Origin: Candidatus Omnitrophota bacterium
Lineage (GTDB): Bacteria; Omnitrophota; Gorgyraeia; Gygaellales; Profunditerraquicolaceae
Reading direction: 5' to 3'
Length of the DNA: 64,000 nucleotides
Assembly: GCA_028716245.1 (NCBI GenBank)
Contig: JAQUQW010000002.1
Coordinates: 154,514 to 218,513, forward strand
Positions 1,228 to 8,423 of the stretch are shown piece by piece. Below the pieces are notes generated by a model that saw only the letters and a list, made by a program, of their open reading frames with translations, was not told the DNA's origin and did no database searches. The translations under genes and the position numbers were made by a program. Position 1 is the stretch's first letter. The number at the start of each line of letters is the position of its first letter.

Positions 1228-1887
1228 TTATTTAAGAAACTGCTCAGCAATCTTTCTTTTACGATTTAAGCAAGGTAGGTTGGGTTTGTAGTAGAGCCAG
1301 GATAGAAGTTTTAAAGAATCATTTTTAGCAAAACGAAGTTGCCAAATAGGAAATTCTCTATTTATTTTAAGATAGTGAGTTAATGACCTTTCTACATTCA
1401 ATGTTTCTTTTATTTTTCCCCTAATCCAGCTAATTTGGTTAAAATTAGTTGAGATAAATTTAGTATATAATCTATGGTAGGTATATCTTTTCCCTTTATA
1501 TTTCATGTATTTATCGGTATAAGTAAAAACAGAACCATCACCATCAAGATGCCCACGCAAGAAATCAACGAAATATTGATCTGGAATATCTAATTTACCC
1601 ATTAACATTGTTTTCTTGGGCAGCAACCCAATTTTTTGCAACCATTGGTAAAATTTTATATTTCCAAAATTTATTCTATAAGTGAGTTTCTTTCCAAATC
1701 CGCTTGGAGGCGTGACCATTGTTTTATTTTTGATACCAAGACACTCTTTGAAGGTATTTGCTAACTGCTGGTCAGTTGTGGTGAAGAGGATGTGCCTTTT
1801 GTCTTTTGATAGGTTTCCATCAGTCGCTATAAGGCCGATAGCGTACGCTAAATTTGAATTCCATTCGTGGTTAATATTTTGTCTCAT
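1228..1887 (-). CDS. LAGLIDADG-family homing endonuclease, free-standing
   Basis: Two LAGLIDADG-type motifs are present: LAYAIGLIATDGNL and FLRGHLDGDGSV. The start is set at Met MRQNINHEW because the longer track ORF (to 1980) reads through the tRNA-Leu gene. Confidence 0.65.
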   Translation of the reverse strand: MRQNINHEWNSNLAYAIGLIATDGNLSKDKRHILFTTTDQQLANTFKECLGIKNKTMVTPPSGFGKKLTYRINFGNIKFYQWLQKIGLLPKKTMLMGKLDIPDQYFVDFLRGHLDGDGSVFTYTDKYMKYKGKRYTYHRLYTKFISTNFNQISWIRGKIKETLNVERSLTHYLKINREFPIWQLRFAKNDSLKLLSWLYYKPNLPCLNRKRKIAEQFLK

Positions 1888-1895
1888 TAAAAAAG

Positions 1896-1978
1896 TACCG
1901 GGAGAGGGACTTGAACCCACATGAGCTTGCGCTCGGCAGCTTTTGAGGCTGCTGCGTCTGCCATTTCGCCATCCCGGC
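1896..1978 (-). tRNA. tRNA-Leu (anticodon CAA), type II with a long variable arm
   Basis: Reverse complement folds as GCCGGGA acceptor stem, D-stem GCG/CGC, anticodon stem GCAGC/GCTGC with loop CTCAAAA, variable arm GAGC-GCAA-GCTC, and T-loop TTCAAGT. There is one U-U mismatch in the T-stem. Confidence 0.75.
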
Positions 1979-2043
1979 ATATATTTTTAAGTTGACGCTA
2001 AGCATTTTATATTCTAAAATAGCAAAGGTCAATACATAAATTT

Positions 2044-2120
2044 TGGGGCTGTAGCTCAGCTGGGAGAGCACTTGCATGGCATGCAAGGGGTCAGGAGTTC
2101 GATCCTCCTCAGCTCCACCA
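2044..2120 (+). tRNA. tRNA-Ala (anticodon GGC) with encoded CCA
   Basis: GGGGCTGTAGCTCAGCTGGGAGAGC...CTTGC-ATGGCAT-GCAAG...GGTTCGATCC...AGCTCCACCA. The G3:U70 alanine identity pair is present, the cloverleaf is canonical, and CCA is encoded. Confidence 0.9.
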
Positions 2121-3055: not shown

Positions 3056-5455
3056 ATGCATTATAATTTTAAAAAGATCGAAGAAAAATGGCAAAAAAAA
3101 TGGCAGCAAGCTTATGCCTTCCGCGCGCAAGCCGATCCTAAACGTAAAAAATATTATCTGCTGGAAATGTTTCCCTACCCCAGCGGTAAAATTCACATGG
3201 GCCATGTGCGTAATTACACTATCGGCGATGTTGCCAGCCGTTTTAAAAGTTTAGAGGGTTATAACGTAATGCACCCGATGGGCTTTGATGCTTTTGGCCA
3301 GCCGGCGGAGAACGCGGCGATAAAAAACAAAACCAAGCCTGGCGACTGGACGCGTAAATGTATCAAGGAGATGGAAACAGAATTAAAGAAAATGGGTTTT
3401 TCCTACGATTGGGAGCGGGAAGTTTCCACCTGCCAAAGCGATTATTATAAATGGAACCAGTGGATTTTCCTCAAGATGCTTGAACGCGGCCTGGCTTATA
3501 GGAAGGCTTCACAAGTTAACTGGTGCCCCAGCTGCGCCACAACTTTAGCGAATGAAGAAGTGATCGAAGGCGAGTGCTGGCGCTGCCAGACAAAAGTAGA
3601 GCAAAAAGATTTAGAGCAATGGTATTTAAAGATTACCGGATATAAAGAAAGATTATTGGAGGATTTAAACCAGCTTAAAAATTGGCCGGCGCGGGTTTTG
3701 GCAATGCAGAATAACTGGATCGGCAAAAGCAGCGGCGTGGATATTTATTTTCGCCTGGAAAATAGCGATAAATTGATTTCGGTTTTTACTACCCGGGTGG
3801 ATACTATTTTTGGGGCAACTTACATTGTCCTGGCTCCGGAGCACCCTTTAGTTTTAGATTTAATTAAGGGCAAACCTCAGGAAAAAGAGGCTTTAGAGTT
3901 TATCAAAAAGGTTGCCAGCGAAAGTAAAATAGTGCGCGCCGCATCCGACGTTAAAAAAGAAGGGGTTTTTACCGGAAGCTTCGCGATTAATCCGGTAAAT
4001 AATGAAAAGGTCCCGGTTTGGATTGCCGATTATGTTTTAATGGAATATGGAACAGGGGCGATTATGGCTGTGCCCACGCATGATCAGCGGGATTTTCTTT
4101 TTGCCAAAGAGCATAAGCTGCCAATGCGCATTGTCATTTCGCCTGAAGATAATTCTCTAAAATCCGCGGAAGTATTAACCCGGGCATATGAAGGCGATGG
4201 CATTCAGGTGAATTCCGGAGAATTTGACGGGTTAAACAATCAGGAGGCCAAGACAAAAATTGCCCAATGGATGGAGGCTAAGGGCATCGGTAAAATACAA
4301 ACCCATTGGCGCCTGCGTGACTGGTTGATTTCCCGCCAGCGTTATTGGGGCACTCCCATACCGGTGATTTATTGCCCGGCTTGCGGCATTGTCCCGGTTC
4401 CTTTTAAAGATTTGCCCGTTGAGCTGCCGGCTGATGCGCCTTTTACCGGAGAAGGCGGAAGCCCTTTAGGCAAGGTTAAGCAATTTGTAGAAGTAAAATG
4501 TCCTAAGTGTAAAGGAAAAGCTCGCCGGGAAACCGATACCATGGCTACTTTTTTTGACTCCTCCTGGTATTTCTTAAGGTTCTGCTCGTCTAAATTTAAC
4601 GCGGCGCCGTTTGATGTAAATGAAGCCAAATACTGGATGGCCGTTGATCAGTATATCGGAGGTATTGAGCATGCGATCCTGCATTTGTTGTATTCGCGGT
4701 TTTTTACTAAATTTTTCCAGGATTTAAAGATGATTGATTTCAGTGAGCCGTTTGATAAGCTGCTCACTCAGGGGATGGTTTTAAAAGACGGCGAAGTTAT
4801 GTCAAAGTCCAGGGGTAATATCGTTGATCCGGATTCGATGATTAAGAATTACGGCGCCGATGCCCTGCGCCTGTTTATCTTATTTGCCGCTCCGCCGGAG
4901 ACGGAGTTGGAGTGGGAGGAGCGCGGGTTAGAAGGAGCGTATAAATTTTTAAACCGTGTCTGGCGGATCCAGGAAAATTTAAAGGGTAACGCTGATCCGC
5001 AGGTATTAAAAGCCCTGCACAAGACAATAAAAAAAGTAGGCGCGGATTTTAGCGAATTTAAGTTTAACACCGCCATTGCCGGTTTGATGGAGCTAACCAA
5101 CATTATTTATCAATTAGGCGCAGATAAGCAGGTATTTTCCAGCCTTGTCATTATGCTTAGCCCGATTGTCCCGCATTTTTCCGAAGAGCTTTGGCAGATT
5201 TTAGGCAACAAGGAAAGTATATTTAAAACCAGCTGGCCTAAATATGATCCTCAGTTGCTGGTTGAAGAAAATGTGGAGTTGGTAATTCAGGTTAACGGTA
5301 AAGTACGCAGTAAAATCGAAGTTGCCCGCGGTATGTCCGAAGATAAACTTAAAGAATTGGTGCTTAAAGATGAAAAATTAATTCCCTGGCTGGAAGGCAA
5401 AACCCCGAAGAAATTCATCATTGTCCCGCAAAAACTCGTCAATATCGTAATTTAA
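3056..5455 (+). CDS. leuS: Leucyl-tRNA synthetase
   Basis: 799 aa. Class I HMGH motif ([13 protein letters not shown]), KMSKS (VMSKSRGN), and a bacterial-type CP1 editing domain. Confidence 0.95.
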
Positions 5456-5458
5456 TAA

Positions 5459-5495
5459 GGGGGACAATAAGGGGGACGTCCTCTTAGGGGACACC
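5459..5495 (+). repeat. REP-like left end of the RayT element (GGGGAC-rich; GGGGGACGTCCTCTTAGGGGACAC)
   Basis: Its reverse complement is found at 6155-6177 (GGGGACGTCCT-AAAAA-GGGACAC). The two copies bracket the transposase gene in inverted orientation. Confidence 0.6.
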
Positions 5496-5562
5496 CTTTT
5501 ATTAAAATAATTGTTAGAAGCGGCCTCTTTTTACGTCAATTAAAGTAAAAGGAGGATTTTTT

Positions 5563-6153
5563 ATGCCAAGAAAAGCGCGAAGGTTGATTGACGGGGGACA
5601 TTACCATGTTGTAACCAGGGGTATTGACTGCAGAAAATTGTTTAGAGATAAAGCGGATAATCAGTATTTTTTAAACATCATATCTGCTAATCTGCCAAAA
5701 TTCAAAATTTCAATTTTTCATTATTGTCTTATGGTAAACCACATCCATCTATTGATTAAAGCTATAAGAGCAGCGGATCTGCCAAAGTTTATGCAGGCAG
5801 TTCTACAAGGATACGCTCATTATTTCAGAAAGAAATATCTTTCGGTAGGATTTGTTTTCCAGAATCGATATAAAAGTCGGTTAATTGATAATGATACATA
5901 TCTCTTGGAATGCGGTCGATATATCGAAAGGAATCCTTTGAGATCAAAAACAGTGCTAGAGCTTTCCAGGTATCATTGGAGCAGTTATCTGCTATATGCA
6001 ACAGGTGAACAAAATGGCATAGTTAGAGTATTGGATCCTTTATATTTAGATTTAGCCAGTACAGACGAGAAACGCAGGGAGGCGTATGTTAATTATGTCT
6101 TACAGGGGCGGCCGTATGAAGATATTTTAGATAAGGAATTTCATATTAAATAG
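5563..6153 (+). mobile_element. REP-associated tyrosine transposase (RayT) / IS200-like HUH transposase gene
   Basis: 196 aa. GHYHVVTRG N-terminus, HUH motif in CLMVNHIHLLIKA, C-terminal Tyr-containing helix (RYIERNPLRS...WSSYLLY). Inserted between leuS and a response-regulator gene. Confidence 0.75.
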
Positions 6154-6154
6154 A

Positions 6155-6177
6155 GTGTCCCTTTTTAGGACGTCCCC
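6155..6177 (+). repeat. REP-like right end, inverted copy of the 5459-5495 motif
   Basis: GTGTCCCTTTTTAGGACGTCCCC is the reverse complement of the left-end motif with a short loop change. Confidence 0.6.
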
Positions 6178-6178
6178 T

Positions 6179-6562
6179 TTATTCTTCTAAAACATCCTTA
6201 ATATCAAAAAGTAGCCTTTGGTAATCGATGGGTTTTTCGACATAGACGGTGATCCCGCTTTTGGCGGCGATATGCTTGTCAATTTCTTCATGTTTTAAGG
6301 AGGTGGCGATGATCGGGGTATCGATAAATTCCGGCAGGCTTTTTATGTCCTGAGCAACTTTAAAACCGCTTTCATCCGGCAGGACCAGATCAAGGAGTAT
6401 GCAGTCAGGTTTCTCCGCCTTAACTTTTTCTACGCCTTCCTGACCACTGTAGGCAGTCACTACCCGGTAACCTGCTTTAAGCAGCTTTTCCTTACTTTCC
6501 TTGACGATGTTATAATCATCGTCAATAATCAGGATCTTCTTAGGCATAGATAAATTATACAC
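6179..6562 (-). CDS. Single-domain response regulator (CheY-like receiver)
   Basis: 127 aa. KILIIDDD, phospho-acceptor context LLDLVLPD, conserved T/S (IIATS) and K (EKP). Confidence 0.8.
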   Translation of the reverse strand: MYNLSMPKKILIIDDDYNIVKESKEKLLKAGYRVVTAYSGQEGVEKVKAEKPDCILLDLVLPDESGFKVAQDIKSLPEFIDTPIIATSLKHEEIDKHIAAKSGITVYVEKPIDYQRLLFDIKDVLEE

Positions 6563-7011: not shown

Positions 7012-8423
7012 AAACTCCGTTTGTAGCGCTAACCGTATTTTATTGCTTAGGAATTATTTTAGCCGAATTTATACCGGCTAACTTTTGGCTGATTATGGCA
7101 GTAGGAGCAATTATCTTTTTTGCGGCAAGCTTATCGAAGGCAAAAAATTATATATTTTTGGTTTTGCTATCATTTTTAGTGCTGTTTTTGGGAATTCTAA
7201 GCTTAAAGAATTCTTATCGATTACCTAAATGCCATATTAGTAATTTTGTTTACTACAAGAATAATTCTTTTTATAGCTTAAGCGGATCTATCGATAGCCA
7301 GCCAGTATTAAACAATAATCGGCTTTGGTTTAGTTTTCGCACACAAGAAATCCAGGTTAATAAATTAAAGTGGCATTGTTGCGGCCAGGTTCTGGTTAAA
7401 ATTGATTTTCCACAAGAATTAAATTATGGAGATAACTTAACGCTGTTGGGGAATTTAACCCGCCCGTATAATTTTAACAGTACCAGACAGGGGTATAAAG
7501 ATTTTTTGGCGCGTCAGGGTATTCATTTAATCATGCGTATAAAGGATCCCCGGCAAATTATCCGCCGGAGCGGCTTTGGCGGATCCCGATTAATTGGCGC
7601 TTCATTTTGGCTGCGCTCTAAGATGGAAGAGGTGGTTAACCACAATCTTCCGGATTTACCGGCAAGCATACTTTCGGCGATGATTTTAGGCCAAAGGCGC
7701 AATATTCCCTGGGTAGTAAATGATTCGATGATTAAATCCGGCACGGTGCATATTTTAGTTGTCAGCGGTTTTAACGTTGGCATTGTCGCTTTTAGCATTA
7801 ACCTATTGTTAAAAATTTTGCGGATTGCGCGTAAGGGGCGGATTATTTTGACAATAATCTGCCTGCTCGCCTATTGCTTAATCACCGGCTCAAGCAATCC
7901 GGTTATCCGCGCTACGGTTATGGGGATAGTTTTTTTAGCGGCGTATCTCTTAAAAAGAGATCCGGATATATATAATTCTTTGGCTGGTGCTGCGTTATTT
8001 ATTTTAATAATCAATCCCCGGCAATTGTTTGATGTTGGTTTTCAATTATCTTTTATTAGCGTACTGGCAATTGTTTACCTTTACCCCAGACTAAAAGCTT
8101 TAACTCATTTAGAGAATTACAAAAATAAAGTATGGAAATTTATCGGTGAGGGGTTTTTGGTTTCATTTTCTGCCTGGTTGGGCACACTATGGATTATTGT
8201 TTTTAATTTCAGGATTATTGCCCCGGTAACAATTTTGGCCAATATTTTGATTGTTCCCCTGGCTACCGTAATTACTTTATGCGGGTTTACCCTGGTTCTC
8301 TCCGGCCTGATTTATCCGCACCTGGCCAGCCTCTTTAGCGCTCCCGCCTCAGCGTTGATTACCCTGCTTTTAAATATAAATTGCGCGGTAATCCGGCTGC
8401 CACTAGCTTATTTTTACCTTTGA
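7008..8423 (+). CDS. comEC: ComEC/Rec2 DNA-uptake channel protein, short form without the C-terminal metallo-beta-lactamase domain
   Basis: 471 aa polytopic membrane protein with a DUF4131-like N-terminus and a competence domain (HILVVSGFNVGIV). Adjacent to comEA. Confidence 0.7.
   Translation: MKTPFVALTVFYCLGIILAEFIPANFWLIMAVGAIIFFAASLSKAKNYIFLVLLSFLVLFLGILSLKNSYRLPKCHISNFVYYKNNSFYSLSGSIDSQPVLNNNRLWFSFRTQEIQVNKLKWHCCGQVLVKIDFPQELNYGDNLTLLGNLTRPYNFNSTRQGYKDFLARQGIHLIMRIKDPRQIIRRSGFGGSRLIGASFWLRSKMEEVVNHNLPDLPASILSAMILGQRRNIPWVVNDSMIKSGTVHILVVSGFNVGIVAFSINLLLKILRIARKGRIILTIICLLAYCLITGSSNPVIRATVMGIVFLAAYLLKRDPDIYNSLAGAALFILIINPRQLFDVGFQLSFISVLAIVYLYPRLKALTHLENYKNKVWKFIGEGFLVSFSAWLGTLWIIVFNFRIIAPVTILANILIVPLATVITLCGFTLVLSGLIYPHLASLFSAPASALITLLLNINCAVIRLPLAYFYL

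Follow-up and report, generated by a model that had tools for sequence, protein, structure and literature searches.

The leuS-regulator spacer and the unit within it

The stretch of DNA studied here, called the window below, comprises 64 kb of contig JAQUQW010000002.1 from a Candidatus Omnitrophota genome (assembly GCA_028716245.1). This work concerns the 723-bp spacer that separates two convergent genes of the window, leuS and the gene of a response regulator. A single open reading frame (ORF) lies in this spacer, and it is flanked by inverted copies of a 25-nt motif, GGGGACGTCC-N6-GGGACAC(C/T)C (Table 1). The ORF codes for a RayT-like HUH transposase of the Y1 type. We consider it likely that the 706-bp unit from 5472 to 6177 is a TIRtron, that is, a REPtron in the broad sense, in which a Y1 gene is set between two inverted cognate 25-nt palindromes.

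A repeat search of the window pairs the arms 5466-5500 and 6149-6183 (35 nt, 80% complementary), and the pattern GGGGACGTCCT-N5-GGGACAC has exactly two matches in the 64 kb, at 5472-5494 on the plus strand and at 6155-6177 on the minus strand, where shuffled sequences predict 0.01. The two arms differ mostly in their 6-nt centres, TCTTAG on the left and TAAAAA on the right, and the right arm has a single departure from the family consensus, ACTC for ACCC. An earlier reading, made from the sequence alone and called the sequence-only reading below, had described near-identical inverted flanks. These are the two 25-mers, but the GGGGAC-rich stretch at 5459-5471 that it had counted into the left flank is a 12-nt tandem duplication, which supplies a partial outer-arm copy, GGGGGAC, at 5459-5465. 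The first copy of the duplicated AATAAGGGGGAC starts within the leuS stop codon (5453-5455), of which it shares two bases, and the duplication is specific to the window, as the loci of the two closest relatives (L001 and L062) are without it. The same reading had the right repeat abut the stop codon of the convergent regulator gene, and indeed this arm ends 1 nt short of that codon (6179-6181); on its other side, it shares the G of the TAG stop codon of the ORF (6151-6153). In a consensus terminator scan, the right end is terminator-like on both strands. GGGGAC by itself is not enriched in the window (14 observed vs 19 expected), in which we found neither a third copy of the 25-mer, allowing four substitutions and loops of 4-8 nt, nor a second copy of the gene.

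Table 1. Positions of the unit, its parts and nearby features in the window
Feature	Position	Strand	Description
leuS	3056-5455	+	
Tandem duplication, 12 nt	5454-5465 and 5466-5477		AATAAGGGGGAC twice, 100% identity; a repeat of the left end's outer junction
Left terminal inverted repeat, imperfect palindrome	5472-5496	+	GGGGACGTCC-TCTTAG-GGGACACCC
Conserved box	5511-5519	+	TTGTTAGA(A/T), following the left end and preceding the leader hairpin
Leader stem-loop	5524-5555	+	CCTCTTTTTAC...GTAAAAGGAGG; upstream anti-Shine-Dalgarno strand (5524-5534) pairs with the Shine-Dalgarno sequence AAGGAGG (5549-5555)
Y1 HUH single-strand-DNA transposase gene, RayT-like	5563-6153	+	196 aa
Right terminal inverted repeat	6153-6177	-	minus strand GGGGACGTCC-TAAAAA-GGGACACTC
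Response-regulator gene	6179-6562	-	127 aa
tRNA-Leu(CAA)	1895-1978	-	
ORF called mechanically	1228-1980	-	250 aa
tRNA-Ala(GGC)	2045-2120	+	

A class-2 Y1 enzyme

The protein is matched by the Pfam family Y1_Tnp (PF01797) at 55.5 bits, against a cut-off of 23, with residues 13-124 aligned to positions 6-121 of the 121 in the profile. Its key residues are H60-I-H62, F99-Q100, Y120-IER-N124-P125 and W139-S-S141, and the HUH motif NHIHLL that had been read in the sequence spans residues 59-64. An AlphaFold model (pLDDT 90.4) has Y120 within a predicted helix, 111-122. The top Foldseek match in the PDB is E. coli TnpA-REP/RayT bound to a REP hairpin (4ER8; E 2.8e-8, TM 0.77 over 158 columns), and the 30 matches with E up to 0.001 consist of 4ER8 and IS200/IS605-type proteins (IS608, ISDra2, IS200 and related chains). 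Aligned by hhalign with E. coli RayT, taken from MG1655, the window protein has H60 and H62 on H59 and H61, F99-Q100 on W94-Q95, Y120 on Y115 and N124 on N119; in the E. coli protein, Y115 is the catalytic residue and N119 a metal ligand (PMC3479197). As for searches with the sequence, phmmer against PDB sequences returned a chance Cas2 match only, a family profile gave weak matches to ISDra2 TnpA, IS608 TnpA and 4ER8 (E 0.009-0.16), and a profile of the C-terminal half alone did not recover 4ER8.

We found 745 homologues; among the 120 listed, nearly all are 195-196 aa long, and every source name given is Candidatus Omnitrophota/Omnitrophica or 'putative transposase'. In 31 homologues of 55-94% identity, H60, H62, N101-R-Y-K-S105, E116, R119-Y120-I-E-R-N124-P125, Y137 and S141 are invariant. 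The sequence-only reading had recommended an alignment with the RayT and IS200 TnpA families as a check, and had taken absence of the catalytic Tyr as refuting it; the alignment with E. coli RayT shows this Tyr to be present, and the fold matches RayT better than IS608 or ISDra2. The Tyr, which that reading had called C-terminal, is within YIERNP and is not a far C-terminal residue. The window protein is an intact class-2 Y1 HUH enzyme under selection.

Y1 proteins split into an IS200-type class (Y---Q) and a class 2 (Y---NP) (Quentin 2018, PMC6006769). Subclass 2.1 of the latter is characterized by the motifs NHVH or NH[YF]H, W[EQ] or FQ, YIELNP or Y[IV]HLNP, and SS in the proximal tail (Table 1 of PMC6006769), and the NHIH, FQ, YIERNP and W-S-S of the window protein match this row. 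Quentin 2018 equates the subclass with RAYT group 1 of Bertels (PMC5581495) and with the TIRYT of Di Nocera 2013 (PMC6006769). TIRYT genes have terminal inverted repeats (TIRs) that share GGGGWSAS at similar distances on both flanks, and in some genomes these repeats make up moderately abundant families of singles, dimers and clusters (PMC3733652). Going by the published motif tables and pairwise homology, and not by Quentin's hidden Markov models, we file the window element as a putative short-form TIRYT/TIRtron of TnpA-Y1 subclass 2.1, RayT-like in fold and organisation.

The sequence-only reading is essentially correct, with some refinements. Of its label 'RayT/IS200-like', the first part agrees with the top fold match, 4ER8, but the protein is not IS200-like. 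An IS200-type identity is ruled out by the Y---NP motif (YIERNP, where IS200-type proteins have Y---Q), by the score for NCBIfam transpos_IS200 (NF033573; 19 bits, against a cut-off of 55) and by the inverted ends. We also rejected a canonical RayT with GTAG-type REPs (subclasses 2.2, 2.4, 2.5, 2.7 and 2.8), as the foot of the hairpins has no GTAG or GTGG and REP_Tyr_transpos scores 52.4 against a cut-off of 80; the features of canonical RAYTs that are present are the class-2 Y---NP motif and hairpin repeats inverted on the flanks of the gene. We recommend annotating the gene, together with its two ends, as a RayT-like (TIRYT) Y1 transposase and not as an IS200 transposase.

Comparison with known systems

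With TIRYT/TIRtrons, the window element shares a Y1 HUH protein with NH[VI]H, FQ, YIE-NP and the W-S-S tail motif, inverted GGGGWSAS repeats at fixed short distances with the right arm on the stop codon, and a low gene copy number, the ends being repeated as singles, dimers and clusters in some genomes. It differs by its protein, of 196 aa vs a median of 238, which lacks the distal helix-turn-helix-like C-terminal domain; by its arms, each of which is an internally palindromic 25-mer instead of a simple TIR; by its host phylum, Candidatus Omnitrophota; and by the retention of one 25-mer with proteins down to 46% identity. Plasmid homologues from two cultured bacteria, P. aeruginosa (33% identity) and R. 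rubrum (41%), both have YIELNP and are surrounded by perfect TIRs that carry GGGGACAG or GGGGTCAG (also given as GGGGACAG and GGGGTCAGACCCC), the right arm overlapping or directly following the stop codon. These plasmid relatives of TIRYT type also score just below the REP_Tyr_transpos cut-off, at 75.6 and 77.4. They are about 35-40 aa longer than the window protein at the C-terminus: the alignment with the 230-aa P. aeruginosa relative stops at window residue 188, and that with the 235-aa R. rubrum relative at residue 142.

E. coli RayT and its REPtron (subclass 2.2, 4ER8) resemble the window element in structure, with the catalytic His-x-His, Tyr and Asn aligned and a Y---NP motif, in having a single-copy gene between inverted hairpin repeats, inherited vertically at a fixed locus, and in the presence of gene-less inverted doublets dispersed extragenically. 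However, the window hairpin has no 5' GT[AG]G foot, its stems are much shorter, identity is about 17%, and the repeats number tens so far vs hundreds. The TnpA proteins of IS200/IS605 (IS608, ISDra2, IS200; subclass 1.1) share the HUH/Y1 fold and the recognition of the ends as hairpins. In contrast with the mutually inverted ends of the window unit, IS200/IS605 elements have co-oriented subterminal hairpins without TIRs; the window unit is also without tnpB and without multiple near-identical copies. The class is already described in the literature. What is new here is a member whose protein is shorter and whose end is a palindrome in itself, and whose host belongs to an uncultured phylum.

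An old insertion inherited in place

The layout of the unit is kept in 11 loci over a range of protein identity from 94% to 46%, including one with unrelated neighbour genes (L006). In all 11, the left 25-mer lies 70-110 nt upstream of the start codon and the right 25-mer 0-10 nt past the stop codon, and the order is left 25-mer, TTGTTAGA box (in the Omnitrophota members), leader hairpin, ORF and right 25-mer. The REP/RayT-like organisation that the sequence-only reading had proposed, with inverted hairpin ends around the gene, is thus found in all 11 of these homologous loci.

The gene order leuS-Y1-response regulator-comEA-comEC is conserved in relatives whose Y1 proteins have 94, 90, 83 and 78% identity. 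The divergence of Y1 parallels that of its neighbours, with 90% identity to the protein of L062 vs 93% for LeuS and 94% for the response regulator, and the ratio of non-synonymous to synonymous divergence (dN/dS) of the Y1 gene is 0.09-0.17 at dS values of 0.28-0.77. A 91-nt stretch made of the left end and the leader is 99% identical to that of L062, with a synonymous divergence of 0.3-0.5 there. Within the clade of the window, the unit has been inherited in place under purifying selection, and its insertion is old, not recent.

That there was an insertion, as the sequence-only reading had it, follows from a metagenome scan with the response regulator, which yielded 80 loci with orthologues of 74-86% identity. 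Among the 60 with sufficient sequence, 55 have leuS and the regulator gene adjacent, with spacers of 6-445 nt and no Y1 gene; four have the Y1 gene, and the fifth remaining contig stops just past the regulator but has the right arm. The 25-mer occurs in none of the 55 Y1-less loci, which form a 369-kb sample selected independently of the motif; in this unbiased sampling, the motif goes together with the gene. No remnants of the Y1 gene or of its ends were found in the Y1-less spacers, and Rfam has no match in six related spacers. The unit was inserted into the spacer between leuS and the regulator gene in an ancestor of the clade.

Dispersed copies and gene-less doublets

The scan for dispersed copies used one genome per species and the query GGGGACGTCC-N6-GGGACAC. 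It covered at least 120 stretches of 8-kb blocks, so that copy numbers are lower bounds; copies in relatives were counted with up to three substitutions, and taxon labels are those of the records. The closest species representative (JAQURC01, 90% nucleotide identity) has at least 7 copies, two of which flank the syntenic gene and five of which are found at three other sites. At least 19-20, spread over 10 contigs or more, are present in PCWB01, whose syntenic gene has 78% protein identity, at least 11 and 12 in the Omnitrophota metagenome-assembled genomes (MAGs) JAQTRM01 and JBDRLG01, at least 25 in CAYNVQ01, a MAG labelled 'uncultured Eubacteriales', and at least 9 in the Aminicenantaceae MAG JBGUED01. 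Single matches in Streptomyces and other high-G+C genomes resemble chance. The sampled stretches hold at most one Y1 locus per genome, and most matched genomes, including CAYNVQ01, have no Y1 gene there.

It had been predicted that copies of the motif would be scattered in intergenic regions. They are so in relatives, mostly extragenic and in tens rather than hundreds, but none lies elsewhere in the window. In Omnitrophota loci, 26 of the 93 copies are wholly inside ORFs of at least 100 aa and 67 (72%) are outside, despite 87% of the bases being covered by ORFs. Nineteen inverted doublets were found, with gaps of 7-124 nt, all of which have the '+/-' polarity of the flanks of the gene and none the reverse '-/+' polarity. 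This uniform polarity is the one expected of derivatives of the unit that have lost the gene, and the doublets look like such gene-less derivatives, of the kind of miniature inverted-repeat transposable elements or REPINs. One of the doublets is shared by four Omnitrophota species, at a common intergenic site (L012 3875-3976, L109 1072-1172, L101 1617-1712 and L107 4751-4850). As the flanks of this site are only 73-79% identical, a gene-less doublet can persist for a long time. The strict polarity and the four-species site would extend REPIN-like behaviour beyond Gammaproteobacteria.

In CAYNVQ01, the copies (L019-L020, L035, L058, L071, L079, L085, L098, L102, L115, L117, L119) mostly belong to a conserved doublet of about 90 nt. 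In JBGUED01 (L031, L038, L065, L068, L088), the 25-mer is abundant and there is a Y1 gene at 52% identity. Either the taxon labels of these two genomes are loose or the system has crossed between phyla.

Contig JBDRLG010000012.1 (L006 2880-9928; also L032 and L044) has eight or nine co-oriented solo left ends upstream of a Y1 gene of 63% identity. These solo ends are extended to GAATCC-25mer-TGATGGCGCGTAATTT, and each is found where a small gene or a pair of genes ends at its 3' side, or shortly beyond; one of them overlaps the end of AbiEii. The genes of the array are DUF5640; DUF6088 and AbiEii; a hydrolase; DUF6788 and NTP_transf_8; Gp49 and HTH_37; and an acetyltransferase and a hydrolase. 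The copy at 7169 retains a degenerate Y1 leader and the first codons. The layout of the cluster resembles an integron cassette array.

Hairpin ends, leader and a possible mechanism

The 25-mer can fold on itself. One strand reads GGGTGTCCC-loop-GGGACGTCC(C), with a 5-bp G+C core, two G·T pairs and three further G-C pairs, and on the complementary strand the G·T pairs turn into A·C mismatches. The DNA hairpin of the left end is stronger on the complementary strand (-5.6 kcal/mol, z -2.5), and that of the right arm is weakened by its one change from the consensus. Over about 100 copies, the stems are nearly invariant, and the 6-nt centre is free in sequence and fixed in length. With GGGGACAC at 5487-5494, the left arm agrees with GGGGWSAS, the box shared by TIRYT ends. 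Its counterpart in the right arm is AGGGACAC in the window, and relatives have either GGGGACAC or AGGGACAC there. A GT[AG]G foot was not found in the approximately 100 copies inspected, in which one strand has GGGG at the foot and the complementary strand (A)GGGT. Rfam gave no match in 5400-6250 at E up to 1, and no target-site duplication or conserved target is visible around the gene-flanking arms or the doublets.

We considered the CGTC-tagged REP superfamily (PMC3733652) for the ACGTC of the motif. As the text of that account describes them, the terminal CGTC of these REPs is unpaired, their stems measure 8-9 bp and start with A-T pairs, and their tails are CCA. Here, CGTC is inside the palindrome GGACGTCC, and on this comparison by text description we rejected the assignment.

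The outer half of an end is partially duplicated in tandem in the window (5454-5477), in L005 (10591-10630, GGCACGTCCCCTTTCAGGACGTCCCC) and L048, in L051 (about 3108-3150), in L006 (7076-7124), and at the right ends of L046 and L069. These duplications, independent in several lineages, may have been left by cleavage and strand transfer close to GAC|GTC. Replication slippage at the hairpin would account for them equally well.

Between the left end and the ORF, GTTAGA is kept in the region of the conserved box in seven of nine aligned loci. This box may be an extended -10 promoter element; a sigma-70 scan of the window called no promoter at 5511-5519. The leader stem-loop has a predicted minimum free energy of -14.1 kcal/mol as RNA. 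A leader hairpin that occludes the Shine-Dalgarno sequence is predicted in 10 of the 11 loci despite sequence change, with energies of -11.5 to -24.2 kcal/mol; it is kept at the equivalent position in L001, L003, L005, L006, L022, L046, L051, L062 and L069, and two of its five consensus pairs have compensatory changes. In IS200, a leader hairpin of this type limits translation. The predicted hairpin likely throttles the translation of Y1.

By analogy with E. coli RayT and with IS608 and ISDra2 (PMC3479197, PMC6006769), the enzyme would bind the 25-mer as a hairpin in single-stranded DNA, more likely on the strand with the G·T pairs. Cleavage would take place close to the hairpin foot, through a 5'-phosphotyrosine formed by Tyr120 and with the metal held by His60, His62 and Asn124, and rejoining of the strands would then move or amplify ends and doublets. 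Synthesis of the enzyme would be kept low by the leader hairpin, which would hide the ribosome-binding site. From their position and the consensus scan, the two arms probably have a second use for leuS, the Y1 gene and the regulator gene, as terminators or as 3'-end hairpins that stabilise the mRNA.

Weighing the interpretation

A number of observations weigh against the reading of the unit as a TIRtron with cognate repeats. The best NCBIfam match of the protein, REP_Tyr_transpos, stays below its cut-off, and the distal C-terminal region of about 40 aa of typical subclass 2.1 members is absent. The predicted DNA hairpins are short and modest (-2.1 to -5.6 kcal/mol, z -1.4 to -2.5), and since their stems are nearly invariant, they have no support from covariation. 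Cleavage, the choice of strand and the cleavage site are all inferred from other systems, and the 64-kb window itself has no dispersed copies. Finally, Y1-bearing loci are placed at two or more positions on a rough host tree (quick neighbour-joining on the LeuS C-terminus and the response regulator, 428 columns), which either losses or repeated insertions into the spacer would explain, and the unit may still move as a whole, blurring the distinction between 'domesticated' and 'selfish'.

Taken further, this last idea makes the unit a still-active, autonomous and selfish insertion sequence (IS) that moves whole, not a resident or domesticated enzyme servicing short repeats. It is found in unrelated contexts of other genomes (L006, L022, L046, L051, L069), its presence at the leuS-regulator spacer is patchy on the host-gene tree with many empty sites, its plasmid relatives have perfect TIRs of 19-32 bp, with three matching places on one plasmid, and RAYT group 1 is rated the most IS-like RAYT group (Bertels 2017, PMC5581495). 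We nevertheless regard a selfish IS as fairly unlikely, given a single copy in 64 kb and, in the loci sampled, one Y1 locus for each genome, a position fixed across species at dS up to 0.77, a divergence that tracks that of the neighbours, and a dN/dS of 0.09-0.17. The arms in the window are imperfect, moreover, the right one with its consensus change, and copies of the gene are far fewer than short doublets. The strongly purifying selection, the uniform length of 195-196 aa across hundreds of homologues and the doublet kept at the same site in four species would also suit a host enzyme that processes single-stranded DNA, for instance in repair or in replication restart at hairpins, with the repeats as its chromosomal recognition sites and not as mobile DNA; diverse roles other than transposition have been suggested for class 2 proteins (Quentin 2018, PMC6006769). 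However, the gene is missing at this locus in most close relatives, the numbers and positions of the motif vary widely between genomes, and relatives contain degenerate leader fragments and partial end duplications, as expected of mobile DNA. Such a host function thus appears very unlikely.

It is also conceivable that the palindromes belong to leuS, the ORF and the regulator gene as ordinary bidirectional terminators or as hairpins that stabilise the mRNA, with no functional tie to the Y1 protein. Terminator-like sites are present on both strands at both ends (six found vs 1.2 expected in the consensus scan), and in the window each arm lies immediately behind a stop codon and ahead of a T-rich run. 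Yet relatives do not keep the T-run, none of the 55 leuS-regulator spacers without the gene contains the motif, and the 25-mer accompanies the gene into contexts with different neighbours (L006). The strict '+/-' polarity of the doublets, which mirrors the flanks of the gene, argues in the same direction. We rejected this explanation as the primary one and hold it to be extremely improbable, while a terminator role is compatible with the TIRtron reading as a secondary use.

The TIRtron reading makes the element real but fairly ordinary, and it should not surprise a specialist. The unit is a well-resolved example, from an uncultured phylum, of the least-studied RayT-like subclass (TIRYT, 2.1), for which we found no biochemistry in the literature consulted. 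The pair of enzyme and site is tractable, with a cognate site defined to the base, a strict doublet polarity, dozens of empty sites and a conserved leader hairpin, and it bears on the question whether REPIN-like, vertically persistent mobile DNA occurs beyond Gammaproteobacteria. A more far-reaching proposal is that the Omnitrophota system is a long-lived vertical partnership of RAYT/REPIN type outside Proteobacteria. In it, the 25-nt hairpin and the enzyme would co-persist down to 46% identity across MAGs of several phylum labels, and one-ended activity at left ends would possibly build integron-like arrays of small accessory genes, as on JBDRLG010000012.1, where a toxin-antitoxin pair or small gene precedes each copy. 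We consider this proposal unlikely as a whole.

Other elements and neighbouring features

Several of the Y1-less leuS-regulator spacers hold other elements. These are inverted doublets of a different, GGGGTCAG-type repeat that also has GGGGWSAS, a GGGGACGG palindrome, modules of 170-200 nt in either orientation, and an insert of 130-173 nt that ends in a terminator-like hairpin. The spacers concerned are those of L181, L194, L195, L196 and L208; L134, L137, L151, L171, L182, L186, L190 and L203; L158; and L189, L192, L205 and L209. The convergent leuS-regulator spacer is a landing pad, or hotspot, for hairpin-type mobile DNA. In one sub-lineage, a solo 25-mer that the window does not have is found between the response-regulator gene and comEA (L003 1750-1774, L167 2976-3000, L168 3419-3443), at a distance of about 470 nt from the unit's right end.

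Elsewhere in the window, the 250-aa ORF that was called mechanically resembles, as judged by eye, a homing endonuclease of LAGLIDADG type. In L005 and L048, a gene of 246 aa without a Pfam match occupies its position. The ORF follows tRNA-Leu(CAA) immediately downstream, and the N-terminus listed for it is just the tRNA read through. This tRNA gene is adjoined by that of tRNA-Ala(GGC).

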